Part shown: piece after piece, positions 7,996-28,765 of the stretch
Layout of the letters: every line of letters begins with the position of its first letter
Position numbering within the stretch: the stretch's first letter is position 1
Assembly: GCA_031548875.1 (NCBI GenBank)
Contig: JAVBQQ010000013.1
Coordinates: forward strand, 16,227 to 80,226
DNA: 64,000 nucleotides
Direction of reading: 5' to 3'
Source of the DNA: Oscillospiraceae bacterium
Lineage (GTDB): Bacteria; Bacillota; Clostridia; Oscillospirales; Ruminococcaceae
Program-made: the position numbers and the translations under genes
Notes under the pieces: generated by a model
The model's database searches: none
Told to the model about the DNA's origin: nothing
Seen by the model: the letters and a program-made list of their open reading frames with translations, nothing else

Positions 7996-8071
7996 GCTGG
8001 TGTAGCTCAGTTGGTAGAGCAATTGATTTGTAATCAATAGGTCGGGGGTTCAAGTCCGTCCACCAGCTCCA
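7996..8071 (+). tRNA. tRNA-Thr (anticodon UGU), CCA encoded
   Basis: GCTGGTG-TA-GCTC-AGTTGGTA-GAGC-A-ATTGA-TTTGTAA-TCAAT-AGGTC-GGGGG-TTCAAGT-CCGTC-CACCAGC-T-CCA. The acceptor, D and anticodon stems pair perfectly. The T stem has one G-G mismatch (see findings). Confidence 0.9.
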
Positions 8072-8250
8072 CGATGTACCGTTGAAACTGTATGGTTTCG
8101 GCGGTGCTTTTTTGTTGCCTATGGATGCAATGGTCAAGTTTTGGTCAAGTTGCCCACGCAAAAGTCCAGTGCCAGTGAAAGAGACGCATATCAAATTGAT
8201 TTATATCTTTTGACTGTTTCTATTCATCTGACTAAAAAAATTAGCACAAA

Positions 8251-8282
8251 ACTCACTGGATACCGCATGGTATCCAGTGAGT
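8251..8282 (-). terminator. intrinsic terminator of the cotH operon
   Basis: Stem ACTCACTGGATACC/GGTATCCAGTGAGT. On the minus strand it is followed by TTTTGTGCTAATTTTTTT. Lies 40 nt downstream of the cotH stop. Confidence 0.75.
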
Positions 8283-8322
8283 AGTATTGTTGATTCATTG
8301 AAAAAACGTAGATCTCTTGCAT

Positions 8323-10755
8323 CTACTTGCCCACATTCCGCTTCGACGGCTTCACCCACCGTTTGTTTGAATAACGGGCAGCAAAGACGATTGCTCCAAT
8401 CAGCAAGACACCCAAGACGCCATACATGATCCAATCCCCTGCTGTGAGGGCGGTGGTCTGCGTACCCTGTGTCCCAAGGCCCATCGGCATTCCTCCGCCA
8501 CCTGCAAGCCTTTCTGGAAGACCCGCTCCAGTTTGGCCATCACCTGTGCCCTCCGGGGTTTCTCCATCGGCAGCGCCCGAGAACATCTGCCCAAACTGGT
8601 CGATCATCTCATCCGTTACACCCATCTGGCCCAGCTGTTCCCGCATCTCGTCTGTCATGTTTCCGCCCAGAGCTGCGTCCAATGCCCCGTTTGTGTCCGG
8701 AGCGCTGTCCGTTGCATCTGCTTCCTGCCCCGCATCCGGCACCTGATCTGGCGAGCCGGTTTGGTCTGTTGCACCAGCTGTGGCGTTGTTTTCGTCCGTG
8801 GTTTTGTTGCCAAAACCCTTGAAGTCGCCGAAATCGCCCATGGACATCCCGCCACCCATGCCACCGGCCATGCTGCCCAGCGCAGACATGTTGACACCCG
8901 AAGCATCCACCATTTTTGCGGACGCTTCTTTTTGCCCGTCGGTCGTTGCAGGGATGCTGCCCTCCAGCTGCCCCGCAACACTTTCAGCCCGCAGGGTGAC
9001 GAGTTCCTTGAACACGGGGAGCGCTTCTTCATATTCTTCATAGGTGTAGAAGGGGTTCGTGTCGTTTTTCACATACCCATTGATCTTCGCATCCAGTTCG
9101 TCCACTGTCTGCTCAAACTGGCCGCTGTTCACATATCCCTCCACGATATCATTCAGGTATTCATGGTATTTCTGGGCATATTCCTCCACGGCCAGCAGTT
9201 GGCTCACTAGCGGCCGGTCTTCCATGCTCACGCCGCTGACGGGTGTGTCGATGGGGAAATTGACCACCGAGGAGGCATCCCCGCTTTGAAAGCCGCCAAA
9301 GGAGAGGTTATAGTCCCAGGGCAACACCGAGATAACGCCATCCTTCTCCAGCAGATAATAGTTCTGCTGCATGCTGGAGACATAGCTGTCCAGGTTCACC
9401 ACAAAGGTATGGGCGGCAAGGTACCGCAGGATCTCATCTACATCCCAATATTGTTCCAGGTCTTCCCCTTCATTGAGTTTTTGGATGGCCGTGATGACCT
9501 GCTGCTGGTCGTTGTCCGACACCTTGCTGGACACGGCATTGTTAAAGATGGAGCCGTAGCTCGCTGGATCGTCGTCGGTGTAAACAAGGCTTCCCCCGCC
9601 CGACGAGAACATGTCGCCCATACCGCCCATGCCGCCTTCGGGCATCGACATACCTTCAGGCATGGACATGCCTGAAGGGAACTGGCTTGTTTCTTCATCG
9701 GTATCTTCCCCTGCCGGCTGGGCCATGTCTTCGCCCTTGGGTGCGGCATTTGCAGAAGCATCTGCAGAGGGTTGTACGCTTCCTGCTTCCGCGGGAGGCG
9801 TTCCACCCATCGCGCCAGAGGGTTGCCCGTTTCCAGAGCCTTCAGGCAGTTCACCCTCTTCCATGCCATCGGGAGGTTGCATATTTTCAAACCCCTCGGG
9901 TAGGTCACCCTCCTGCATGCCGTCGGGCGGCTGCATGTTTTCGAACCCTTCGGGCATCTGCATGCCCTCTGGGATCTGCATTCCTCCGGCGCTTTCGTCT
10001 GCGCTGCCCTGCGAGGCGCTTGCATCCCCGTTTCCTGCGGCATCTTCGCCGGTGCTGTCACTGGAACTGCTGCTTTGGCTGTTCTGCGCCTGGCGGTCGG
10101 GACGCACCGGCTCAAAATCGCCCGCTTCAAACTGGCTGCGCTCGCCCATGCCCATCTTCACATTGTACAATTCGCCTGTAGTGGCATTGTATACCCGGTC
10201 CAGGAAGGAATCGTCATACCGCTCTAACAGCAGGAACAGCCCATAGGGCTCGCCGTTCACGGTCACCTCGGCATAGTTGTGAAGAGGACTGGGCACTTCC
10301 AGGTATTCCATGACGTCGTAGCTGATGTAATCTTTCATATAGGTGGCATCACCCATCAGGTTGTTCAGGCACATGGTGTCCAGCCCATAAAAGCTCTGTC
10401 CGTCCACATATTTGTTTGGGTTCAGCTGGAGGCTGTACCGGCCGTTACTGCCACCGCTCATAGTCAGGCTGGAGTTGCCCTTGGTGCGGATGCCCACGGT
10501 AGAGAAGCGCTCCCCATTGATGACTAGGTCGGCGGAGATGTATTCTTTGCTCTGGGCGTTGTCCAAAAGACCCTGCCAGTCCTCCGGGTCGGCTTCGATC
10601 TCGATGGTGACCACCTCGTCATTAAACAGGTAGCGTTCATAATCGGTGGCGGCCGCCTGGGCACTGCCCGCCGCAGAGACCATGAATACACTCCCCACGA
10701 GCGCCAGGCCGACGAATACCGCCACGATGACGGAAATAAATCTGCTCTGAATCAT
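8323..10755 (-). CDS. CotH kinase family protein, membrane-anchored at both ends, with a large acidic low-complexity insert
   Basis: N-terminal signal/anchor (FISVIVAVFVGLALVGSVFMVSAAG). CotH core EVVTIEIEADPEDWQGLLDNAQSKEYISADLVINGERFSTVGIRTKGNSSL...MCLNNLMGDATYMKDYISYDVMEY and ...YLAAHTFVVNLDSYVSSMQQNYYLLEKDGVISVLPWDYNLSFGGF. C-terminal TM (IMYGVLGVLLIGAIVFAA). Confidence 0.85.
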   Translation of the reverse strand: MIQSRFISVIVAVFVGLALVGSVFMVSAAGSAQAAATDYERYLFNDEVVTIEIEADPEDWQGLLDNAQSKEYISADLVINGERFSTVGIRTKGNSSLTMSGGSNGRYSLQLNPNKYVDGQSFYGLDTMCLNNLMGDATYMKDYISYDVMEYLEVPSPLHNYAEVTVNGEPYGLFLLLERYDDSFLDRVYNATTGELYNVKMGMGERSQFEAGDFEPVRPDRQAQNSQSSSSSDSTGEDAAGNGDASASQGSADESAGGMQIPEGMQMPEGFENMQPPDGMQEGDLPEGFENMQPPDGMEEGELPEGSGNGQPSGAMGGTPPAEAGSVQPSADASANAAPKGEDMAQPAGEDTDEETSQFPSGMSMPEGMSMPEGGMGGMGDMFSSGGGSLVYTDDDPASYGSIFNNAVSSKVSDNDQQQVITAIQKLNEGEDLEQYWDVDEILRYLAAHTFVVNLDSYVSSMQQNYYLLEKDGVISVLPWDYNLSFGGFQSGDASSVVNFPIDTPVSGVSMEDRPLVSQLLAVEEYAQKYHEYLNDIVEGYVNSGQFEQTVDELDAKINGYVKNDTNPFYTYEEYEEALPVFKELVTLRAESVAGQLEGSIPATTDGQKEASAKMVDASGVNMSALGSMAGGMGGGMSMGDFGDFKGFGNKTTDENNATAGATDQTGSPDQVPDAGQEADATDSAPDTNGALDAALGGNMTDEMREQLGQMGVTDEMIDQFGQMFSGAADGETPEGTGDGQTGAGLPERLAGGGGMPMGLGTQGTQTTALTAGDWIMYGVLGVLLIGAIVFAARYSNKRWVKPSKRNVGK

Positions 10756-10775
10756 AACCTATCTTCCCATCTGCA

Positions 10776-11444
10776 TCACATGTAGTATTCGCCGTTGTAA
10801 CTTACCAGAACGGCATTCTCCACGCCGGCCACAGCCAACATATCGTTCACAAGTTTGGCAGTGTCTTCCTTCAGCCGCACCTCCAGCGTCAGTTCAATGC
10901 CCTCTTTGGAGACGGACTTGCTTTTCATCATGTATTTTTTGGTTTGTGCCCCCACCAGATCCAGGGCGCTTTTTTCCGCTTCATCGCCGCTGCAGTTCAC
11001 GATGAGGACGTAGGGCGTATCTGTTGTTTTCTTGCTGACAAAAACGAACAGGATGATCCCGATGGCGATGGACCCGATGACGGCGAGCGGGATGAGCCCC
11101 ACACCCACAATGATGCCGGAGGTGATGGCCCAGAATAGAAACACCAGGTCCAGCGGTTCCTTGATGACTGTGCGGAAACGGATGATGGACAGGGCGCCTA
11201 CCATGCCCAGCGATGCAATGAGGTTGGACGAGACGGCCAGGATGATGAGGCAGGTAATCATGCCCATGGCGATGAGCGAGATGGCAAAAGAGGGCGAGTA
11301 CATCACGCCGTTGAAGGTTTTCTTGTACACAAAAAAGATAAACAGGCCCAGGGCAAACGAGATGAGCAGGGCCACAACGATGTCGGTGATGGAAATGCTG
11401 GCGGCCTTGCTTAAAAAGCTGAAGTTCAGGATGTTGTCTAGCAC
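10776..11444 (-). CDS. DUF4956 domain-containing membrane protein
   Basis: ITDIVVALLISFALGLFIFFVYKKTFNGVMYSPSFAISLIAMGMITCLIILAVSSNLIASLGMVGALSIIRFRTVIKEPLDLVFLFWAITSGIIVG. The GALSIIRFRT motif and its position between the VTC and CotH genes are typical. Confidence 0.8.
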   Translation of the reverse strand: MLDNILNFSFLSKAASISITDIVVALLISFALGLFIFFVYKKTFNGVMYSPSFAISLIAMGMITCLIILAVSSNLIASLGMVGALSIIRFRTVIKEPLDLVFLFWAITSGIIVGVGLIPLAVIGSIAIGIILFVFVSKKTTDTPYVLIVNCSGDEAEKSALDLVGAQTKKYMMKSKSVSKEGIELTLEVRLKEDTAKLVNDMLAVAGVENAVLVSYNGEYYM

Positions 11445-11500
11445 GGTTAGAATTCCCCTTTCGGTTCTTGTTATTATTCAGACTTTGGTTTCTTCTTTTT

Positions 11501-12181
11501 TCAGGTGACCAAGCGCGAAACAATGTACTTGGAAAATTCCGTCTCCCGCCTGTCCCCGATCTGCACGGCATCCCGCATGATATCCGGCAGGAATTCGTCA
11601 AACTTGATTTCCAGCAGGACGATGTTGGCCGAAGGGATCGTGACGCATTTCGGGTCCAGGAAATCATGCACATGCTCGCTCGTGCGGATGTTCGAGTCGA
11701 TGGTGATGCGTACGTTTCCCGGTTTGTACACATACGCCTCCCGGTGGTAGTCCACAATTGTGCGGGGTCGCAGTTGCTGGGTCACAATCTTTGTGTATAG
11801 CTCGGCCAGCAGTGGATGGCTCGTATCCATCAGCATTCCATAGTCCCCGTTCAGGATGTCCGTGCACTCTGTGGCGCTCAGTTCGACGGTCTCCTTGCCT
11901 ACAAGGCGTTTCAGCTTGCTTTTCTTCTCCAGCCGGATGAAGGAATCATCCTCCTGATAGTACCGGAACCTAAACTTCTCCCGGCGGCTGGCACCCATCA
12001 GCTTCTCCGTGACGGCTTTGTCCCGATAGTTGTCAAAGTACAGGCTGCGCACCATATAGCCGCCAGTGGGGCCGGTATTTTCGTCCGGCTTTGCCAGGTG
12101 CTTCAAACGGCCGCGCAACTGCATCCAATCGCTATAGTTGATGTAATGCTTTAGTTCATGCCTAAATTTTGTTTCATGCAA
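11501..12181 (-). CDS. VTC-domain (polyphosphate polymerase domain) protein
   Basis: HETKFRHELKHYINYSDWMQLRGRLKHL...GGYMVRSLYFDNYRDKAVTEKLMGASRREKFRFRYY...IVLLEIKFDEFLPDIMRDAV. The probable start is TTG (complement of 12181-12179), just after GAGGGGAGAG. The longer track ORF (to 12382) runs back through a terminator hairpin. Confidence 0.75.
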   Translation of the reverse strand: MHETKFRHELKHYINYSDWMQLRGRLKHLAKPDENTGPTGGYMVRSLYFDNYRDKAVTEKLMGASRREKFRFRYYQEDDSFIRLEKKSKLKRLVGKETVELSATECTDILNGDYGMLMDTSHPLLAELYTKIVTQQLRPRTIVDYHREAYVYKPGNVRITIDSNIRTSEHVHDFLDPKCVTIPSANIVLLEIKFDEFLPDIMRDAVQIGDRRETEFSKYIVSRLVT

Positions 12182-12327
12182 ATCTTGTCTCTCCCCTCTA
12201 GGATGGCTGGCGCACATCCGAAAAATGCCAGTTCTATCTGAACGGTTCAAATGGTAGCAAGCCTGCCTTAAAAATAGCTTTAGCCAGTGGTGAAAATTTT
12301 GTGTTTTCTCGGGAGAATCACAGCAAA

Positions 12328-12355
12328 AAGAGGCCATGCATCCGCATGGCCTCTT
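12328..12355 (-). terminator. intrinsic terminator after the histidine kinase gene
   Basis: Stem AAGAGGCCATGC/GCATGGCCTCTT with loop ATCC. On the minus strand it is followed by TTTTTGCTG. Confidence 0.7.
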
Positions 12356-12378
12356 TTCTCGATGAATAGCCGCATCCA

Positions 12379-13659
12379 TCATGCAGTGGGCAGGACCACC
12401 GTGAAGGTAGTTGATTCTCCAAGGGTACTCACCGCCTGGATCTGTCCCTTGTGCTGCTGCACGATGGCCTGCGCGATGGAAAGCCCCAGGCCGTAGTTGT
12501 TTGTTTCCCGCTGCCGGGCATCGTCGCCGCGGTAAAACCGTTCAAAGATATGGGGCAGGTCCCGCGGGGCGATGCCGGCACCAGTATTCTCCACGCGCAG
12601 GTTGGCTTTCCGTCTGTCCGCACGTAGTTGCAGCTTGACCGCCCCGCCGACAGGCGTGTATTGGATGGCATTTTCCAGCAGGATATGCACCAGCCGGCGA
12701 ACATCCTCCCGATCTCCCAACATCGTTACCTCCTCGGCCACTGATGAGGAAAACTGTAGATTTTTTTCGAACATGACAGCCTCCATGGGAAGGATGCAGC
12801 TCTGCACCGTATCCGAAAGGGAAAATCGCTTTCTTTCACGCGACGGTACATCAGAATCGGCTCTCACCAGGGTGAGCAGGCGGGTAGTGAGGTGCTGCAT
12901 ATGTGCAGTTTCCGCCTCGATGTTGCCCAGCCACTCCATCTGGGAGGCAACGCTTTCATCCGGGTGAGACGTGAGAAGCTCTAGATTTGTCTTGATGGCG
13001 GCTACCGGGGTTTTCAGCTCGTGGGAGGAATCTTGTACGAAGCGGCGCTGGTTGTCATATGCCTCTTCAATGGGCGCCACCGATCACTTGGCAAACCACC
13101 GGCTCACAAACCAGATGACCGCCAGCATACATATAAAAACGATTGCAGATACGATGACGAGGTTGACCCGATAAGCCCTCGACTCGCTTGTTTCAATAAA
13201 GGCAATGCGATAGGTGTTGCTGTCACCATCCATGGAAACCCGGTACGTCCAGGTATCCTCCCCCTGGGTGAAATGCCCTGTATACCCATCCTCTACACGC
13301 ACCTGTTCCAGCATAGCGGGCACATCGATTGCCTCCATGTTGAAAAAAGGATTTGACCCGATGGGTGCATAGCTGCCATTTGTGACCCGGACAGCGAAGC
13401 CGGCCTTTGGAATACTCATGTCTGGGTCCAAACCTGCCGGTAATTCTGTAGGGTTCGGTTGCAGGGTAGATATCCCGGCTTCAGGCCAGGGCAGGGCGTT
13501 GTTGTTGGGCAGGGTAAGCAAGGTGTTCAATCCCACATCCAGCTCTCGTTGAGACGTCGAATAGGTGAGTGTGTATACAATGACAAATGCAGCAAGCATC
13601 AGCAAACTGATGACCAGCATGTTCATCCGGATGAACCCGCGCCGCAATTTTTCAAACAT
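12379..13659 (-). pseudogene. sensor histidine kinase interrupted by one in-frame TGA (track ORFs 13084..13659 and 12379..13080)
   Basis: The upstream part is TM1, a periplasmic domain and TM2, ending ...VIWFVSRWFAK. Then comes TGA (complement of 13086-13084), followed in the same frame by SVAPIEEAYDNQRRFVQDSSHELKTPVAAIK (H-box) ... ENTGAGIAPRDLPHIFERFYRGD ... GLGLSIAQAIVQQHKG. Confidence 0.8.
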
Positions 13660-14347
13660 GGTCCTTCTCCAGTTTGTACCCCATGCCGCGGATAGTCACG
13701 ATAGAACAGTCCGAGTGGAGATACTTGAGTTTTTTTCGCAAAAAAGAGATATACACCTCCACATTGTTGTCCTGGGTCTCACTTTCAAACCCCCAGGCGT
13801 TCACAATGATGGCTTGCTTGTCGCAAACGTTGGCAGCGTTCCGCATGAGGCACTCCATCACCAACGCCTCCTTGCGGGACATGGAGACTGTGCGGCCATC
13901 TTGTGTAAACAGCCGCAATTCCGGCACATCCAGGGATGTGTTGCCACAAAAAAGAGCGCCATCGCGGGTTATAGGCTGCCCTTTTCTCCGCGTGATGGAG
14001 CGAAGGCGGGCCATCAGCACCGTTGAAGAGAAGGGCTTAGTGAGATAATCATCGGCCCCTTTGTCCAGCCCTGTCACGACGTTTTCATCCTCGCCAAGGG
14101 CAGTGAGCATCAGAACAGGAGTCGCGACGCCTTGCGCGCGCAGCTGCTCCAACACTTCAAGTCCATTTAACTGGGGCAACATGACATCCAGGATGATTGC
14201 CTCATAACTGCCGGACAGGGCGTAATCCAACCCGTCACGCCCATTGTGCACACATTCCGCTTCATAATTTTTTTCGCGCAGCATTGCCGCCAATGGCAGA
14301 GCCAGATGCTTCTCGTCTTCGATAATCAGGATGCGCAGAGCTATCAC
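13652..14347 (-). CDS. OmpR-family response regulator
   Basis: RILIIEDEKHLALPLAAMLREKNYEAECVHNGRDGLD...ILDVMLPQLNGLEVLEQLR...GADDYLTKPF, plus a winged-helix C-terminus (VYISFLRKKL...IVTIRGMGYKLEKD). Overlaps the kinase start by 8 nt. Confidence 0.9.
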   Translation of the reverse strand: MIALRILIIEDEKHLALPLAAMLREKNYEAECVHNGRDGLDYALSGSYEAIILDVMLPQLNGLEVLEQLRAQGVATPVLMLTALGEDENVVTGLDKGADDYLTKPFSSTVLMARLRSITRRKGQPITRDGALFCGNTSLDVPELRLFTQDGRTVSMSRKEALVMECLMRNAANVCDKQAIIVNAWGFESETQDNNVEVYISFLRKKLKYLHSDCSIVTIRGMGYKLEKDHV

Positions 14348-14779: not shown

Positions 14780-15418
14780 CCCGCGGGCCAGGTCTGATTT
14801 GTCTACGCCACTCATTGTGCCGCAGGTGGTACGTGCGCACAGCGCCCTGCCTTACGTTCGAGAACGCACCTGCAACAAGGGCGTTACTTGGAAGTCAAGC
14901 AACACCAACGTGTGGCCACCGTCAGCGCCAACGGCAAGGTAAAGGGCATTTGGAACGGCACGGCCACCATCACCGCCACCGCGAAAGACGGCAGCGGCAT
15001 GAAGACCTACTGTAAAATCACCGTGAAGCAGACGTTCATCGCAACCCCGATGGTCACGAAGATGGCCCTCAGCAACACCAAAACCGTTAAAATCACTTGG
15101 ACAAAATCCGCGAAGGCCACCCACTATCAGGTTTACCGTTCGACCAACTCCAACAGCGGGTTTAAGCGCATCGCCACCGTGAAGGGCACGTCGTACACGA
15201 ACAAGAACCTGACCGCAGGCAAGACTTACTACTTCAAGGTTCGCGCGCTCAAGAAGGCCAAAAGCGGCAAGAAAACCTACAGCGGCTACAGCACCGCAAA
15301 GCCCGTCAAGATGAGTGCCGTAAAGCCCCGCAGCACAGCCGTATTATTATCAGGCCGCGCAACCACAGCAACCATACTATGCTTACCAAACCCCTCCCCC
15401 ACTGCCACCAAATGGTAA
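14780..15418 (+). pseudogene. decayed fragment of a Big_2 / fibronectin-III surface protein gene
   Basis: The Big_2 domain is spread over three frames: ...CLTFENAPAT / NKGVTWKSSNTNV / ATVSANGKVKGIWNGTATITATAKDGSGMKTYCKITV. A GT dinucleotide duplication sits at about 14911-14914. One FN3 unit follows (KITWTKSAKATHYQVYRSTNSNSGFKRIATVKGTSYTNKNLTAGKTYYFKVRA). There is no start, signal peptide or anchor; the left boundary is approximate. Confidence 0.6.
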
Positions 15419-15598: not shown

Positions 15599-16366
15599 AT
15601 GTGGAACTTGTACGACCAGCTCATTGACCCCATCCCCGAGGGTATTGGGGTGGAGTGGTACAACGCCGCCCGTGTGTGGACGGGCGTGGCCACTATTGGC
15701 GGCGTGGGCGTGGCCATGACCGTACACGATACCGGTATGCCGCGCCTTGTAGAGGGTTCAATTACCGGTATGGACCTACGCGCCTTGGCCGGGCTTTCAA
15801 AGTCCTGGCAGATGGTGGAAGCCTCTCTTGGCGTGGCAGCCATCAACGCATGGTATAACACTTGGGACAAAGCCTCCGCATTCCCCGGCTTTCATCCTTT
15901 GGCGTCTAAAAAGGACGACCTGCAAAGCCGCACCGAAAAAAACGCATTCTTCGCCTTTGCCGATGAAATCGCGGGTAAAAAAGTGGCTGTCATCGGGCAC
16001 TTCCCACACATCGAGCAGCAGCTAGCCGATATCTGCGAGTTGTCCATCCTGGAGCGCAACCCCAGCCGGGGCGACTATCCCGACAGCGCTTGTGAGTATA
16101 TACTGCCCCAGCAGGATTATGTCTTCATCACCGGCATGGCGCTCATCAACAAGACGCTGCCGCGTCTGCTGCAAATCTGCCAAACGCCAAAGGTGTCGCT
16201 GGTGGGGCCTTCGGTTCCTCTTGCGCCTGTTTGGAGGGACTACGGTGTAGACAACCTGTCCGGCTTTGTGTGTACCGAGCCGGATGTGGTGGACGAAGCG
16301 CTCCGGCGGGGCGGCCACCAAGAGATTTTCCTGGGCGGCCGCATGGTCAGCATCGACCTCGTCTAA
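15599..16366 (+). CDS. DUF4213/DUF364 domain protein (putative metal-chelate-handling, Rossmann-like)
   Basis: MWNLYDQLIDPIPEGIGVEWYNAARVWTGVATIGGVGVAMT...LAGLSKSWQMVEASLGVAAINAWYN...IAGKKVAVIGHFPHIEQQL...DYVFITGMALINKTLPRLL...VSLVGPSVPLAP. Confidence 0.75.
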   Translation: MWNLYDQLIDPIPEGIGVEWYNAARVWTGVATIGGVGVAMTVHDTGMPRLVEGSITGMDLRALAGLSKSWQMVEASLGVAAINAWYNTWDKASAFPGFHPLASKKDDLQSRTEKNAFFAFADEIAGKKVAVIGHFPHIEQQLADICELSILERNPSRGDYPDSACEYILPQQDYVFITGMALINKTLPRLLQICQTPKVSLVGPSVPLAPVWRDYGVDNLSGFVCTEPDVVDEALRRGGHQEIFLGGRMVSIDLV

Positions 16367-16501
16367 ACCATTCTACCTATTTGCTGCCGTCCGGCAGGCG
16401 CGGCAGTTTTATTACCACAATCGTATTGTTTTATCAAATATATCGAATTGACACTTGGGTACACATTGACATCTATTTCTACTCTTACGTGGGAGGTAAC
16501 A

Positions 16502-17137
16502 ATGCAACAGACCGAAAACAACAAGGCGTACGACTATGACGATATCGCCGAGCATATCTTCAAGTCCATCTATGGGGTGATTGCTGAGCAGATTGTGGCC
16601 CGCACCAGAGTGCATAGCGGCAACCTTGTGGACATTGGCTGCGGCGGCGGGCATCTGGGGTTTGCCGTTTTGCAGCGCACGCAACTGGAGGGATATTTTA
16701 TTGACATCCAGCCCGCGGCGGCGGCCGTTTGCGAAGAGAGAGCAACTGCGCTGGGCCTTGCCCACCGGGCGCACATTACCACCGGCGACGTGCACGCCCT
16801 GCCCTACCCAGACGGCTTTGCACACCTCATCATTAGCCGGGGTTCGATGGGCTTCTGGGGCGAGTACGAGATTGCTTTTGCCGAAATCGGCCGGGTGCTG
16901 GCGCATGGCGGCAGGACCTACATCGGCAGCGGCCTGGGCAACCGGGAGACCCGCCTTGCGATAAACGAGAAGATGAGGGCGCGCGACCCCGACTGGCCTC
17001 ATTCCATCCGCCGCCGCCAGACGCACCTGCCCACCGAAGAATTGCGGCGCATCATCGCGCAGACTGCACCTACGTGCGAACTGACTGTCATCGAAAGCGA
17101 GGACGAGGGACGATGGTTCCTGCTGTCAAAAAGCTAG
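16502..17137 (+). CDS. class I SAM-dependent methyltransferase
   Basis: ATG at 16502 follows GGGAGG. Motif I is LVDIGCGGGHLGFAVL; also ...DVHALPYPDGFAHLIISRGSMGFW...IGRVLAHGGRTYIG. Confidence 0.8.
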   Translation: MQQTENNKAYDYDDIAEHIFKSIYGVIAEQIVARTRVHSGNLVDIGCGGGHLGFAVLQRTQLEGYFIDIQPAAAAVCEERATALGLAHRAHITTGDVHALPYPDGFAHLIISRGSMGFWGEYEIAFAEIGRVLAHGGRTYIGSGLGNRETRLAINEKMRARDPDWPHSIRRRQTHLPTEELRRIIAQTAPTCELTVIESEDEGRWFLLSKS

Positions 17138-17154
17138 AAAACGAACGCGCGCGT

Positions 17155-18189
17155 ATGGGCGAAAGGGTCTCTCCCAGCTTGCGCACACGCCCTTCGCGGC
17201 GGCTGCGCTGGGTGCTCATCATCGCCGTGCCCTTGCTTCTATTCTTGTTCTCCTTTTCCATTGGCAAGTACCCCATCGGCCCGGCCGACCTGCTCTCCAC
17301 CATTTACTATCACTTTACAGACCCCGCCAAGATTGCGGACAGCAACATGGAAACAGCACTGTTCAACATCCGGCTGCCGCGCGTGCTGGCCGCCATGCTG
17401 GTGGGGGCGGGGCTGTCGGTGGCGGGCGCTTCGTACCAGGGTATGTTCAAGAACCCCATCGTTTCGCCCGATATCCTGGGCGCGTCGGCGGGGGCGGGCT
17501 TTGGCGCCGCACTGGGGCTGCTGCTCTCGCTCTCCACAACCGGCATCCAGCTGTGCGCCTTTGCGGGCGGCATCGTAGCAGTTGTGTTCACGGTCGGCAT
17601 CAACAAGGGTGTCTCGCACGACCCACTACTTGGCCTCGTGCTGGGTGGCGTGATGGTAACAAGCCTTTTTTCGGCTTTCACCTCCTACGTGAAGCTTGTG
17701 GCCGACCAAGACGACAAACTGCCCGCCATCACCTTCTGGCTGATGGGCGGCTTCCACTCGATGACCCGGGCAAAGCTTATAAGCATCCTGCTGCCCGTCG
17801 GCGTCTCCATCGCCATCCTGTTCCTGCTGCGCTGGAAGCTGAACGTGTTTTCCTTTGGTGAGGAGGAGGCGCGCACACTGGGTGTCAAGACGCGCAGTGT
17901 GCGGTATCTCGTCATCCTGGCCGCCACGCTCATCACGGCGTCATCGGTGGCCGTGGCCGGCATGGTGGGCTGGGTGGGGCTGGTCATCCCGCATCTGGCG
18001 CGGGTGTTCGTGGGACCCAATTTTCGCCAGCTCATCCCGGCCAGCGCGCTGCTTGGCGCAAGTTACCTGCTCTTGGTGGACGACATCGCCCGCAACGCCT
18101 GGGTGGTGGAGATTCCCATCGGCATCCTCATGGCGGTTGTGGGTGTGCCGGTATTCCTGCTCATTTATAGGGCAAACGCGCGGAGGTGA
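17155..18189 (+). CDS. FecCD/BtuC-family ABC importer permease
   Basis: RLRWVLIIAVPLLLFLFSFSIGKYPIG...NIRLPRVLAAMLVGAGLSVAGASYQGMFKNPIVSPDILGASAGAGFGA...GEEEARTLGVKTRSVRYLVILAATLITASSVAVAGMVGWVGLVIPHLAR. The start could also be ATG 17113. Confidence 0.85.
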   Translation: MGERVSPSLRTRPSRRLRWVLIIAVPLLLFLFSFSIGKYPIGPADLLSTIYYHFTDPAKIADSNMETALFNIRLPRVLAAMLVGAGLSVAGASYQGMFKNPIVSPDILGASAGAGFGAALGLLLSLSTTGIQLCAFAGGIVAVVFTVGINKGVSHDPLLGLVLGGVMVTSLFSAFTSYVKLVADQDDKLPAITFWLMGGFHSMTRAKLISILLPVGVSIAILFLLRWKLNVFSFGEEEARTLGVKTRSVRYLVILAATLITASSVAVAGMVGWVGLVIPHLARVFVGPNFRQLIPASALLGASYLLLVDDIARNAWVVEIPIGILMAVVGVPVFLLIYRANARR

Positions 18190-19073
18190 AATGGATGCTA
18201 CAGGTGTGTGGTTTGCGTGCCGGATATGGCCGAGGCGACATCCTGAAGGATGTGAACGTCTCAATGGACAGCGGCGACTTTTTATGTGTTCTGGGCGCCA
18301 ACGGCTGCGGCAAAACAACGCTTCTCAAAACCATCCTGGGCATCCTGCGCCCCACGGCGGGGCAGGTGCTGCTGGATGGCGAAGACATCCACAAGATGGA
18401 CGTAAAACAGCTGGCCCGGCAGATTGCCTATATCCCCCAAGCGCACGTTCCGCCCTTCCCGTTCACCGTGCGCGACGTGGTGCTCATGGGCCGCACACCC
18501 TTCCTGGGGCATCTGGCCATGCCCCGGGAGAGCGACCGAAAGCTTGTAGACGATATCCTTGAAATGCTGGGTATCGGCTGGATGGCCGACCACAGCTACA
18601 CCGCCCTCAGCGGCGGGCAGCGCCAGATGGTCGTCGTTGCGCGGGCGCTGGCCCAACAGCCGCGCCTGCTGGTAATGGACGAACCCACTGCCAGCCTCGA
18701 CTTTGGCAACCAGTATGTCGTGCTCAGCCAGATGGTGCAGCTGTCCAAAACCGGCATCAGCGTCATCATGGTGACGCACGACCCCAGCCACGCCTTCTTC
18801 TGCGCCAACCGCGTGCTGGCCATGAAGGACGGCCGGGTGCTGGACGAGGGCACCCCGCGCGAGGTGATTGTGGAGGCGGCGATGGAAGAAATCTACCAGA
18901 CGCCGGTGAAGATTGCAGACATTGCTCTTTCGGATGAAACCAGCGCCTCTATCTGCGTGCCGCTGCATGCCTGCGCAGGTGAAAGCACCTGTGCATCCGA
19001 CATAGCCCGTCACAACCCCATTCCTTTCCCGCACTTTGCGGAAAAATATACCCAACAAGGAGATGCACAATGA
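18186..19073 (+). CDS. ABC importer ATP-binding protein (FepC/FecE-like) with a Cys/His-containing C-terminal tail
   Basis: Walker A LGANGCGKTTLLK, signature LSGGQRQMVVVARAL, Walker B LLVMDEPTASLD. GTGA overlap with the permease stop. An extra tail of about 45 aa reads ...SASICVPLHACAGESTCASDIARHNPIPFPHF. Confidence 0.85.
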   Translation: MKWMLQVCGLRAGYGRGDILKDVNVSMDSGDFLCVLGANGCGKTTLLKTILGILRPTAGQVLLDGEDIHKMDVKQLARQIAYIPQAHVPPFPFTVRDVVLMGRTPFLGHLAMPRESDRKLVDDILEMLGIGWMADHSYTALSGGQRQMVVVARALAQQPRLLVMDEPTASLDFGNQYVVLSQMVQLSKTGISVIMVTHDPSHAFFCANRVLAMKDGRVLDEGTPREVIVEAAMEEIYQTPVKIADIALSDETSASICVPLHACAGESTCASDIARHNPIPFPHFAEKYTQQGDAQ

Positions 19074-20233
19074 AAAAACTTGCCCGTTCCCTCTCGCTCG
19101 CACTGGCTGCCGTGGTGGCATTGGCCTCACTCGCGGCCTGTTCCGGCCAGTCGGCCGGCAGTTCCGGTTCTGCCGTCCCATCCGGCGCGCCTTCTTCCTC
19201 GGCCGCTTCGCCGGCGTCCGCCTCCGAAACAGCCGACACTTCCACAATCACCGACCATGCGGGCCGCACCGTCACAATCCCCTCGCCCGCGAACCTTTCC
19301 AAGGTGTATGTGTCCAGCCCCATCGGGTTCATCTTCCTGTACACGCTGGATTTTGAAAAGCTGGCCGGCACACCCATGCAGTTTTCCGACCAGGAACTGA
19401 CCTATCTGAACCCAGCCTGCGCCGACATGCCCTATCTGGGCGGCCAGCAGATGGGCGGGGAACTGAACAAGGAAGCCATCATCGAGGCGGGCACACAGGT
19501 GTTCTTCTCCATGGGCCCGTCAAAGCCCAGTGAGACGGACATCTCCTCCGCGGACGAACTACAGGAGCAGTTGGGCATCCCGGTCGTAGTGGTGGACACC
19601 AGCATGGATAACATCACCGAGGCGTACACGTTTATGGGCGGGCTGCTTGGCAAAGAAGACCGCGCCGCCGAACTTGCCGCCTACTGCACATCGGTGTTCG
19701 ACGACGTGGTGGCCAAGGTGGCGGATATCCCCGATGAGGACAGGGTCAGCGTGTATTACGCCGAGGGCGAGGACGGACTGTCTACCGAGCCGGAGACATC
19801 CTCCCACGCGGCAGCGCTGGGGTACGCCGGTGCAGTGAACGTGGCCGACGTGGAAGCTACGCCGGGCAGCGGCATGTCGCCGGTGTCACTGGAGCAGATA
19901 CTCGCCTGGAACCCGGACGTCATCATCAGCTGGGGCGCCCAGCGGGGCGGCGCGTATGATACCATCCGCGAAAACGCCGACTGGGCCAGCATTGCCGCCG
20001 TGCAAACCGGCCGGGTGTATGCCATGCCCAACACCCCCTTCAGCTGGATGGACCGTCCCCCTTCGGTGAACCGCTTTTTGGGCATCCAGTGGCTGGCAAA
20101 CCTCCTGTACCCCGAGGTGTACGATGTGGACATGGTGGAGGTGACTACCGAGTTCTACAAGCTGTTCTACTCGGTGGAGCTGACCGAGCAGCAGGCCAAA
20201 GACCTGCTAGATGACGCTGGAGGCGCGGGCTGA
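19070..20233 (+). CDS. ABC importer substrate-binding lipoprotein (siderophore/cobalamin/haem-type periplasmic binding fold)
   Basis: Lipobox LASLAACSG followed by a Ser/Ala-rich linker. Also ...ILAWNPDVIISWGAQRGG...WASIAAVQTGRVYAMPNTPFSWMDRPPSVNRFLGIQWLANLLYPE. ATGA overlap with the ATPase stop. Confidence 0.8.
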   Translation: MKKLARSLSLALAAVVALASLAACSGQSAGSSGSAVPSGAPSSSAASPASASETADTSTITDHAGRTVTIPSPANLSKVYVSSPIGFIFLYTLDFEKLAGTPMQFSDQELTYLNPACADMPYLGGQQMGGELNKEAIIEAGTQVFFSMGPSKPSETDISSADELQEQLGIPVVVVDTSMDNITEAYTFMGGLLGKEDRAAELAAYCTSVFDDVVAKVADIPDEDRVSVYYAEGEDGLSTEPETSSHAAALGYAGAVNVADVEATPGSGMSPVSLEQILAWNPDVIISWGAQRGGAYDTIRENADWASIAAVQTGRVYAMPNTPFSWMDRPPSVNRFLGIQWLANLLYPEVYDVDMVEVTTEFYKLFYSVELTEQQAKDLLDDAGGAG

Positions 20234-20363
20234 ACAGCTTGCGACTGACTGCCTCCTCTCTGCCGCAAAACAAGCGCCGGGCCGCCCTATCCGGGCGGTC
20301 CGCTATATTTTACGCATCCTGCATTCGGCTTAAAATAGCCCTGCCAAAAAGGAGAGACGAACC

Positions 20364-21596
20364 ATGCAACTCATCGACCTGCCCAGCTTCGAAGACCTGC
20401 CCTCCCGCGAGGAGATGCTTGCTCGGGTCACCTCGCTATGGAACCCGCAGCGCCCCACCGAGGTCATCCCGGTGGAGGAGGCGCTGGGGCGCATCCCTGC
20501 GGCGGATGTATATGCCCGCGTGAACCTGCCGGTGGTGCGCGCCAGCGTGCGCGACGGCATAGCCGTTCCGTCAAGCCGTTTTGCACAGGGCGCGCCGGAC
20601 ACCTCCGGTTGGAAGCTGGGCGTAGATTTTGTACGCGCAGACACGGGCGACGATTTTGACGATGACTACGACGCGGTAATTATGATAGAAGACGTGAACC
20701 TGAGTGTGGACGGCAGCCTGCGCATCCACAAAGGTATAGACGTAACACCCGGTATGAACACGCGCGGGGCCGGCAGCACCGTGCGCGAGGGCGAGCGCCT
20801 TGTGCAAAAACACCTGCCGCTGCGCCCCAAAGACCTCGCCGGGCTTGTCATGGGCGGCGTGGGGGTCATCGAGGTGCTCAAAAAGCCGGTGGTGGCGTTC
20901 ATCCCCAGCGGCAGCGAACTGATTGCCCCCGGCACACCTGTGGCCCGGGGCAAGAACATCGACACAAACAGCCTGCTGGTGCGCGAGACGCTGCACGAGT
21001 TGGGCGTGCAGCCGCTTTGCCTGCCCATTGTGCCCGACGAAGAGGCGCCCATGGAGCGCGCACTGGATGAGGCGCTGGCGGCGGCCGATCTAATAATCCT
21101 GAACGGCGGTTCCTCCAAGGGCAGCGAAGACTGCGGCGCCCGCCTTTTGCACCGCAAGGGGCAGGTGCTCTGCCACGGCGTAGCCGCCGCGCCGGGAAAG
21201 CCCCTGTGCGCCGCGATTGTCGGCGGCAAACCTGTCATCAACCTGCCCGGGCCGTTCATGGCCGCTTACCACGGGCTGGAGTGGTGCATCAATTCCCTGG
21301 TGGCGTATTACCTCTGCCAGCCCCCGCGCCAGCGCCCCACCCTCACCGCCACCCTAACCGAAGAGCTGCAGGGTTCAGACACCGTGTCTTTCCTCGCCAT
21401 CGTGGAAGTAACACGCAAAGCGGACGGCAGCGGATATTGGGCCACGCCCTTCAGCTTCCGGAACATTCCCACCAGCCGCACCATCGCCTCCAACGCCCAG
21501 TATATGACGAAAATCGGCGAGGTGCTGCCTAAGGGAGCGGACATCGAAGTGCAGTTACTGCGCGGGGTGGAGCATATTCCTGTCGCCGGCATGTAA
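20364..21596 (+). CDS. moeA: molybdopterin molybdenumtransferase MoeA-like protein
   Basis: VIPVEEALGRIPAADVYARVNLPVVRASVRDGIAV...AFIPSGSELIAPG...GKNIDTNSLLVRETLHELG...DLIILNGGSSKGSEDCGARLL...HGVAAAPGKPLCAAIVGGKPVINLPGPFMAA. RBS AAAAAGGAGAG. Confidence 0.8.
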   Translation: MQLIDLPSFEDLPSREEMLARVTSLWNPQRPTEVIPVEEALGRIPAADVYARVNLPVVRASVRDGIAVPSSRFAQGAPDTSGWKLGVDFVRADTGDDFDDDYDAVIMIEDVNLSVDGSLRIHKGIDVTPGMNTRGAGSTVREGERLVQKHLPLRPKDLAGLVMGGVGVIEVLKKPVVAFIPSGSELIAPGTPVARGKNIDTNSLLVRETLHELGVQPLCLPIVPDEEAPMERALDEALAAADLIILNGGSSKGSEDCGARLLHRKGQVLCHGVAAAPGKPLCAAIVGGKPVINLPGPFMAAYHGLEWCINSLVAYYLCQPPRQRPTLTATLTEELQGSDTVSFLAIVEVTRKADGSGYWATPFSFRNIPTSRTIASNAQYMTKIGEVLPKGADIEVQLLRGVEHIPVAGM

Positions 21597-21783: not shown

Positions 21784-21829
21784 CCCCACAAAAGTCGGGG
21801 GAAAAACCGGAGCCGGTCCACCAGCTCCA
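21784..21829 (+). repeat. tRNA-Thr-3'-end-like structured motif, copy 1
   Basis: CCCCACAAAAGTCGGGGGAAAAACCGGAGCCGGTCCACCAGCTCCA. The last 14 nt are identical to tRNA-Thr positions 8058-8071, and GTCGGGGG is identical to 8041-8048. Confidence 0.85.
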
Positions 21830-28718: not shown

Positions 28719-28765
28719 CCCTCACAAAAGTCGGGGGAAAAACCGGAGCCGGTCCACCAGCTCCA
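28719..28765 (+). repeat. tRNA-Thr-3'-end-like structured motif, copy 2
   Basis: CCCTCACAAAAGTCGGGGGAAAAACCGGAGCCGGTCCACCAGCTCCA, identical to copy 1 from CACAAAAG onward. Confidence 0.85.

Follow-up and report, generated by a model that had tools for sequence, protein, structure and literature searches.

A VTC-DUF4956 gene pair with a CotH-family kinase and an adjacent OmpR-type two-component system outside pel loci in an Oscillospiraceae genome

The stretch of 64,000 nucleotides (nt) analyzed here, hereafter the window, covers positions 16,227 to 80,226 of contig JAVBQQ010000013.1 from the Oscillospiraceae bacterium assembly GCA_031548875.1. On its minus strand it carries an operon of three genes, which encode a VTC-domain protein of the Vtc4-like triphosphate-tunnel type (11501-12181, 226 amino acids (aa)), a DUF4956 membrane protein (10776-11444, 222 aa) and a CotH-family kinase (8323-10755, 810 aa). 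Comparison with other genomes identifies VTC and DUF4956 as an obligate pair, next to which the third gene is exchangeable. The trio as such is already known from Gram-positive pel loci (PMC7112168, PMC12345266). New is its occurrence as a free-standing unit away from pel genes, together with a dedicated sensor-regulator lineage and with a conserved direct repeat upstream of the VTC gene.

The co-conservation of the genes was determined in a survey of Bacillota with one genome per species, in which 80 loci were picked solely by their DUF4956 similarity. The VTC gene directly precedes DUF4956 in 79 of these loci. The third gene encodes a CotH protein in 66 loci and a beta-helix protein of the Cthe_2159 family in 13, and is absent in one. 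A second survey covered 41 related genomes from the same genus, family and order. Here 31 of the 37 VTC matches have DUF4956 immediately downstream on the same strand, and the next gene after the pair is CotH in nine cases and Cthe_2159 in 20. The constancy of VTC-DUF4956 and the variation of the third gene indicate that the conserved unit is the pair plus an exported, tethered protein of either of two unrelated folds. A first-pass annotation, made from the letters of the sequence, had described VTC, DUF4956 and CotH as a recurrent neighbourhood. The strong co-conservation of the three genes bears this out, but not the trio as the unit, since the core is VTC-DUF4956 and the third gene is either CotH or Cthe_2159. 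Its remark that the physiological role of the trio has not been worked out agrees with the literature consulted.

Both variants of the unit can be followed in individual genomes. The genome under study contains a second, paralogous module on another contig (C31:1514-5138), which consists of VTC (236 aa), DUF4956 (about 222 aa) and a 711-aa Cthe_2159 beta-helix protein with a lipoprotein signal, and which is preceded at the contig start by the 3' end of a histidine kinase gene. In Lachnoclostridium phytofermentans ISDg the genes for VTC, DUF4956 (70% identical to that of the window), CotH, a regulator and a kinase stand in a row, and no polysaccharide genes were found near this module. The regulator pair of L. 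phytofermentans lies downstream of the trio and belongs to a different lineage from that of the window.

In addition, the two core proteins occur as genuine in-frame fusions in both orders, as VTC followed by DUF4956 (P0252) and as DUF4956 followed by VTC (P0134 lineage), and P0134 is encoded just downstream of a 1061-aa CotH. Such natural fusions indicate that the two proteins work together. Other candidates for fusions were rejected. The apparent DUF4956-CotH fusions P0182 and P0184 are deletion products, in which CotH sequence from about residue 170 onward follows the end of DUF4956, and were not counted, and P0149 is a frameshift artefact. P0165 and P0166, with fragments of all three domains on contigs of ~2.3-2.5 kb, are probably artefacts as well and were likewise not counted. 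Besides these, the metagenome proteins P0206, P0244, P0246 and P0345 have DUF4956 fused to further domains with a link to membrane or wall. Of these partners VanZ was confirmed by a Pfam scan, and precomputed Pfam labels name Acyl_transf_3, PF07907 and VanW with G5 as the others; most of these further fusions lie on short contigs, and some may be gene-calling artefacts.

The longest open reading frame (ORF) of the VTC gene (11501-12382) extends through a terminator and is hence too long. The start is likely TTG 12181, with ATG 12217 as the alternative. A GGGGAG ribosome-binding site lies 9 nt before TTG 12181, and the alignment with relatives agrees on this start. The resulting 226-aa protein was assigned to the VTC family by Pfam (1.6e-40) and has a single domain, without a transmembrane segment or signal sequence. 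A phmmer search of the protein against the PDB sequences gave no match and only profiles reached Vtc4, where a profile of the relatives' VTC proteins matches the catalytic domain of yeast Vtc4 (3G3Q) at 1.6e-17. In this profile alignment, invariant or near-invariant residues map onto Vtc4 R196, K200, R264, R266, E279, K281, K294, Y359, R361 and R373. According to cryo-electron microscopy (cryo-EM) of the yeast complex, the triphosphate ligands are K200, R264, R266, K281, R361, K458, S457 and Y359, the manganese ligand is E426, and K458 is the residue that separates active Vtc4 from inactive Vtc2 and Vtc3. The triphosphate-coordinating positions K200, R264, R266, K281, Y359 and R361 are all matched (K, R, R, K, Y and R, respectively), and the catalytic residues that the first-pass annotation wanted to see confirmed are therefore present as far as they can be aligned to Vtc4. 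The last strands of the bacterial proteins carry an invariant E191-x-K193 and S217-K218-Y219. Judged by motif order, E191-x-K193 and S217-K218 may be equivalent to Vtc4 E426 and S457/K458.

The AlphaFold2 (AF2) model of the VTC protein (pLDDT 95), a closed beta-barrel tunnel, supports the same relationship. The top matches in Foldseek are 3G3R, 3G3Q and chain E of 8I6V, with E values of 5e-14 to 5e-13 and TM-scores of 0.72-0.75. Of these 3G3R is best (E 5e-14, TM-score 0.75), and the triphosphatase YgiF (2.7e-9) and the CYTH enzymes are well behind. The protein is thus a cytoplasmic enzyme that structurally comes closest to the catalytic tunnel domain of Vtc4, the polyphosphate polymerase of yeast. 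With the yeast VTC complex (Vtc4/Vtc3/Vtc1; 3G3Q, 3G3R, 7YTJ, 8I6V) it shares the tunnel fold and the alignable triphosphate-binding residues, and in either case the soluble catalytic domain has an obligate partner in the membrane. In the bacterial module VTC is a separate protein, and its partner is the MgtC-like DUF4956. PPK1 (PF02503) and Ppx-GppA (PF02541) were not found in the 85%-complete assembly of the same genome, and one two-domain PPK2 is encoded on contig C57 (9845-11311, open frame of 558 aa). The lack of PPK1 and PPX is compatible with VTC as a source of polyphosphate, but is not proof of it.

Other VTC-domain proteins were found beside those of the modules. Three relatives encode a divergent class (G003:C11:26714-27328, G022:C19:32528-33145 and G012:C78:383-985; 74-86 bits), two members of which were compared and are 24-26% identical to the VTC protein of the window, and these genes have no DUF4956, CotH or Cthe_2159 nearby. 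P0273 and P0292, one of which is labelled Burkholderiales, are VTC-domain proteins of ~400-500 aa without a membrane segment. They carry a long, basic, apparently disordered N-terminal extension, which is Pro/Arg-rich in one of them.

The membrane protein reaches 34.1 bits with the Pfam model for DUF4956 (cut-off 30.6) and is 66-83% identical to the best 119 of 8000 homologues. NCBIfam contains no model for the VTC, DUF4956 or CotH protein. In the AF2 model (pLDDT 80) five hydrophobic helices (aa 19-136) are followed by a C-terminal beta-alpha, ACT-like domain (aa 144-215). The top match in Foldseek is the C-terminal domain of Mycobacterium tuberculosis MgtC (2LQJ, TM-score 0.64, target-normalised), followed by ACT-like folds. 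The NCBIfam MgtC/SapB model NF007431 gives a weak collinear match (E 1.6e-4, 21.3 bits), which does not reach the cut-off of 214. Homologues of the protein are named YhiD in one source, and the 2025 paper on Streptococcus intermedius also assigns its DUF4956 homologue as MgtC-like (PMC12345266). DUF4956 thus shares a hydrophobic N-terminal domain and an ACT-like C-terminal domain with MgtC/SapB/YhiD proteins. However, in difference to these, it has a GALS-I/V-RFR motif of its own, is always paired with VTC and has, as judged from the fusions, both termini in the cytoplasm. This motif is the most conserved element of DUF4956 and lies on the third helix, with R89-F90-R91 (nt 11172-11180) invariant.

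The fusions also bear on the topology. Since they occur in both orders and VTC needs cytoplasmic ATP, both ends of DUF4956 should face the cytoplasm. This would require an even number of membrane passes, and therefore one of the five helices would not be a full pass. The helix with the RFR motif may be the incomplete one.

The Pfam match of the CotH protein (2.7e-58) falls into two stretches that are split by a low-complexity insert. The protein starts with a hydrophobic signal or anchor (aa 1-34) with an AQA motif, followed by the N-lobe (about aa 40-205), by the insert between the lobes (about aa 205-388, nt 9592-10143), which is variable, acidic and Gly/Met/Pro-rich, and by the C-lobe with the catalytic-loop aspartate D456 (nt 9388-9390) and the metal-binding aspartate D481 (nt 9313-9315). 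A C-terminal transmembrane helix (about aa 775-797, nt 8365-8433) precedes a basic tail. The protein matches Bacillus cereus CotH (5JD9) in phmmer at 5e-8, and D456 and D481 align to two aspartates of 5JD9, 23 residues apart, which correspond to D228 and D251 of Bacillus subtilis CotH. Their substitution inactivates the B. subtilis kinase according to the literature. Of 51 operon-linked CotH proteins, at least 90% keep both aspartates as well as the N-x-D-S-Y and P-W-D-Y-N motifs around them. Of the complete operon-linked CotH partners, 55/55 have an N-terminal hydrophobic segment and 44/55 a C-terminal transmembrane helix. The CotH protein, which begins with a signal sequence and is anchored at its C-terminus, is therefore predicted to be extracytoplasmic. 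For this protein the first-pass annotation was right in its domain assignment, as it was for VTC and DUF4956, as well as in the N-terminal anchor and the C-terminal helix, and the catalytic residues it had proposed to look for are in place. The predicted locations of the three proteins, with VTC in the cytoplasm, DUF4956 in the membrane and CotH outside it, also fit its reading.

Compared with Bacillus CotH (5JD9), the window protein has the same kinase fold family and both catalytic aspartates, but it is exported and anchored, about twice as long and carries the inter-lobe insert. Moreover, it is encoded with VTC and DUF4956, whereas Bacillus CotH is encoded with cotG and cotB. The insert has a counterpart in the Cthe_2159 protein of the second module (C31:3003-5138), as both contain similar Gly/Met/Pro/Asp/Glu-rich low-complexity stretches with M-P and P-P-D-G units, for example FENMQPPDGMQEG in CotH and GEMPTPPDGWGENGGMPTPPGDGG in the Cthe_2159 protein. 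These shared stretches may be a wall-spanning linker or a cation-binding region.

Upstream of the operon and on the same strand lie the genes of an OmpR/PhoB-type pair, of which the regulator is intact and the kinase is not. All five genes stand in the order that had been annotated before, i.e., response regulator, histidine kinase, terminator, VTC, DUF4956 and CotH on the minus strand with the tRNA adjoining. The response regulator (13652-14347) contains Response_reg (1.1e-25) and Trans_reg_C (1.4e-17) domains in Pfam. The histidine kinase is split by an in-frame TGA (13084-13086) into an N-terminal part with both transmembrane helices and the sensor region between them (13087-13659) and a C-terminal part with the DHp/HisKA and HATPase_c domains (12379-13083). 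The kinase gene is followed by an intrinsic terminator with a hairpin at about 12325-12358 and a U tract after it (12321-12358 in total, minus strand; fold dG -29 kcal/mol, z = -7.2). This strong terminator between the two-component genes and the VTC operon indicates separate transcripts, so that the coupling described in the first-pass annotation is regulatory and not one of co-transcription. A scan for promoter consensus sequences gave no more sites than were found in shuffled sequence.

The TGA reads WFAK-stop-SVAPIEE and lies between the second transmembrane helix and the DHp domain. When it is read through, the kinase aligns over its full length to an intact orthologue from the same genus (49% identity over 449 columns). 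Intact relatives hold Q, W, R and several other residues at this position, and a single transition from TGG or CGA would yield the stop. Selenocysteine or an alternative genetic code was considered for this codon and dismissed, as the codon falls on a linker position with little conservation. Thus the histidine kinase of the first-pass annotation is present with its HisKA and HATPase_c domains, but its gene is broken by a stop codon that had been overlooked. The sensor region is extracytoplasmic, comprises about 130 aa and has no Pfam match. In NCBIfam, PnpS and PhoR types are among the top matches of the kinase, with scores far below the cut-offs.

A regulator and a kinase were found within 7 kb in 39 of the 80 Bacillota loci, and the adjacent regulators of about 32 loci are 37-63% identical to that of the window. 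In comparison, the other OmpR-type regulators of the same genome are at most 33% identical to it, except for one with 43% (contig C92), which may serve the second module on C31. By their sequence relationships, the regulators that adjoin VTC-DUF4956 modules form a dedicated lineage. A direct repeat, CTAAAG-N5-TTTAAGG with 11-bp spacing, is located 85-102 nt upstream of the VTC start (12266-12283, minus strand) and is present in a single copy in the genome. Seventeen of its 18 bases recur upstream of VTC in a genus relative (G014), the regulator of which is 63% identical. Of 73 loci, 10 have the pattern TWAAG-N6-TWAAG upstream of VTC, compared to 2 on the opposite strand and 0.6 expected from random windows, a control that is generous because intergenic DNA is AT-rich. 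We infer that the repeat is a candidate binding site of the OmpR-type regulator.

In Gram-positive bacteria the trio has been described as an accessory gene set at pel loci (Whitfield et al., 2020, PMC7112168), and as SIR_1592-1594 in S. intermedius (mBio 2025, PMC12345266). It is contiguous with pel in streptococci, clostridia and bifidobacteria (PMC7112168, PMC12345266). In the published table for Clostridium perfringens NELoc-2, VTC and CotH appear by name and the gene at the DUF4956 position is listed as a tubulin/FtsZ-like membrane protein. The genes of the window belong to the same three families and have the same predicted topology, i.e., a secreted CotH, a cytoplasmic tunnel enzyme and an MgtC-like ACT membrane protein. 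In difference to the pel trio, their order is VTC, DUF4956, CotH with a dedicated OmpR-type two-component system, and the CotH protein is anchored at its C-terminus and carries a long low-complexity insert instead of an FN3 domain. Pfam scans of 6-33 kb of the window found neither pel nor glycosyltransferase genes among the neighbours. The authors of the 2025 paper report that they did not find the trio arrangement beyond pel loci (PMC12345266). This is contradicted by the window, by L. phytofermentans and by 66 of the 80 loci.

The operon lies close to a tRNA-Thr gene (anticodon TGT; 7996-8071, plus strand, ARAGORN), at a distance of 251 nt from the CotH stop. Two terminators are present in between, one of which is a hairpin with a 14-bp stem and bidirectional capacity 3' of the CotH stop (8251-8282, minus strand). 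The last 14 nt of the tRNA, GTCCACCAGCTCCA (8058-8071), recur as direct repeats on the plus strand at 21816-21829 and 28752-28765, where they form the end of a 46-nt direct repeat (21784-21829 and 28720-28765, 98% identical). Bracketed by the 46-nt repeats is a 6.9-kb block with genes for a regulator of the MalT/LuxR type, a membrane protein and a peptidase of the C11 clostripain family. Between the response regulator and a DUF364 operon lies a 176-aa ORF (14888-15418) with a partial Big_2 and one FN3 domain, which lacks a signal sequence and a proper start and looks like a gene fragment.

The first-pass annotation had taken the position next to the tRNA and the lower GC content as signs of horizontal acquisition, which is partly supported. 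In addition to the tRNA-end repeats, the module is patchy in the genus, with CotH in 7 and VTC in 15 of 23 genomes. The gene order of the genus is kept up to SPFH-NfeD, in one genome up to the tRNA, and then breaks, and the closest orthologous operon (VTC 64%, DUF4956 78%, CotH 58% identical) is found at an unrelated locus without a tRNA. A quick tree of DUF4956 (225 columns) intermixes families and does not follow taxonomy. The window protein groups in it, well supported, with L. phytofermentans, a Clostridiaceae bin and a contig labelled Bathyarchaeota. Contigs with this label (L040:8302-11628, JGI 3300027904; also L041 and L042) carry a VTC-DUF4956-Cthe_2159 operon, and the DUF4956 of L040 is 68% identical to that of the window and has archaeal-type neighbours (Hjc resolvase, Ribo_biogen_C), a context that suggests transfer between domains. 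However, no integrase or recombinase was found by Pfam among the ORFs scanned in 6-33 kb of the window, and this counts against horizontal origin. So does the low-GC stretch, which does not coincide with the repeat-bounded interval, as GC is 0.54 for 8072-14347 and 0.62 for 16448-21596 inside one and the same interval. With 0.53-0.57 the operon is indeed below the genome (0.614) and the left flank (0.643), but the contrast is modest and GC content is weak as proof of transfer once the rest of the window (30-64 kb) is measured, which has 0.568.

For the function of the module, we tentatively favour a mechanism in which a phosphate chain made by VTC, or a signal dependent on it, is conveyed outward by DUF4956 and is used or bound by the tethered partner; from the sequence comparisons this is possible rather than probable. 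VTC would sit on the cytoplasmic face of DUF4956 and build the phosphate chain from ATP, and DUF4956 would hand either this chain or a chain-dependent signal over to the outer side. The partner tethered on that side would use or bind it, and in the window this partner, CotH, would phosphorylate surface proteins or glycans in surroundings free of ATP. The adjacent OmpR-type regulator would set transcription through the TTAAG-type direct repeat upstream of VTC. As the sensor kinase carries a nonsense codon, induction is probably impaired in this genome. That the modules are a polyphosphate-export machine of bacteria and some archaea, with CotH taking its phosphate from polyphosphate and Cthe_2159 binding the polyanion, is improbable. 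Such a machine would allow phosphoryl chemistry outside the cell without ATP.

Several points speak against the proposed mechanism. To our knowledge, no CotH-fold kinase that uses polyphosphate is known, and no enzymatic test of any bacterial VTC-domain protein was found in the searchable literature. The profile of the C-terminal 72 residues of VTC, which include the putative equivalents of E426 and S457/K458, gave only chance matches in the PDB, e.g., SecA. The model of DUF4956, a monomer, shows no pore, and the literature describes MgtC proteins as regulators of ATP synthase and phosphate signalling and not as channels. The yeast VTC complex has an SPX sensor and a three-helix membrane domain, both of which are absent here. 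Finally, in S. intermedius, from which the only genetic data come, the deletion of the DUF4956 or the CotH homologue lowered aggregation, whereas no effect was reported for the VTC deletion (PMC12345266), a result that argues against a simple linear pathway.

A function in cytoplasmic phosphate, magnesium and energy homeostasis is the main rival. Polyphosphate would then stay inside, DUF4956 would be an MgtC-like regulator with a metabolite-sensing ACT domain and nothing would cross the membrane, while the exported third protein would be co-regulated as a member of the same stress response and would use any donor present outside; we regard this explanation as somewhat unlikely. It can draw on the likeness of DUF4956 to MgtC in sequence and C-terminal fold, on the ties of the MgtC family to ATP synthase and PhoR that the literature reports, on the PnpS and PhoR types among the distant matches of the kinase and on the authors of the S. 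intermedius study, who proposed that polyphosphate is retained in the cytoplasm (PMC12345266). In addition, PPK1 was not found in the incomplete genome, so VTC could be the polyphosphate synthase of the cell. However, an exported, membrane-tethered third gene in 79 of the 80 loci is left unexplained, and so is the alternation of two unrelated exported folds at one position. In another explanation the module modifies a surface polymer. CotH would phosphorylate an exopolysaccharide, a wall polymer or a matrix protein with a donor other than polyphosphate, and VTC-DUF4956 would indirectly regulate or energise this reaction. The contiguity with pel operons in streptococci, clostridia and bifidobacteria is in line with this, as are the glycosyltransferase next to the trio in C. 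perfringens NELoc-2, the altered Pel-dependent aggregation of S. intermedius after deletion of the CotH or DUF4956 homologue (PMC12345266) and the nature of the alternative third gene Cthe_2159, which belongs to a carbohydrate-binding beta-helix family. Nevertheless, such a function is unlikely, since no polysaccharide genes flank the operon in the scanned part of the window or in L. phytofermentans, most of the 80 loci have a two-component system or nothing recognisable beside the trio, and Pel was still produced in 4/4 of the S. intermedius mutants (PMC12345266).

The operon could also be decaying cargo of an island, horizontally acquired and non-functional in this genome, with the nonsense codon of the kinase as the onset of loss. 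The in-frame TGA, the frameshifted Big_2/FN3 fragment next door, the tRNA-end repeats without an integrase and the patchy distribution in the genus would fit to this. In contrast, the genes for VTC, DUF4956 and CotH are complete and none of their conserved catalytic or invariant residues is lost, the regulator and the two kinase halves show no other damage, and the TGA could be an assembly or strain variant, which makes decay of the whole operon improbable. Least likely by far is that CotH is a spore-coat kinase as in Bacillus and that the operon serves sporulation. The protein does belong to the CotH family and Spo0A is present in the genome, but Bacillus CotH is made in the mother cell without a signal sequence, whereas all 55 complete operon-linked homologues have a hydrophobic N-terminus. 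The trio is also present in non-sporulating streptococci and bifidobacteria, a closely related VTC-DUF4956 pair with Cthe_2159 as third gene stands in an archaeal gene context, and SpoIVA was not found in the 85%-complete genome. The role at the spore surface that the first-pass annotation had considered is unlikely because the protein has a signal sequence and a membrane anchor.

Taken together, the trio is not an accessory of pel but a free-standing, regulated and probably mobile module with VTC and DUF4956 as its obligate core, which is backed by the fusions in both orders. The copy in the window is one of very many such loci and has a broken sensor, and L. phytofermentans ISDg, with a five-gene unit of the same families, provides a tractable organism. 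If the proposed mechanism is true, the module would represent the first counterpart in prokaryotes to the polyphosphate polymerase-translocase of eukaryotes, and the mechanism would account for the supply of a phosphoryl donor to a kinase outside the membrane.

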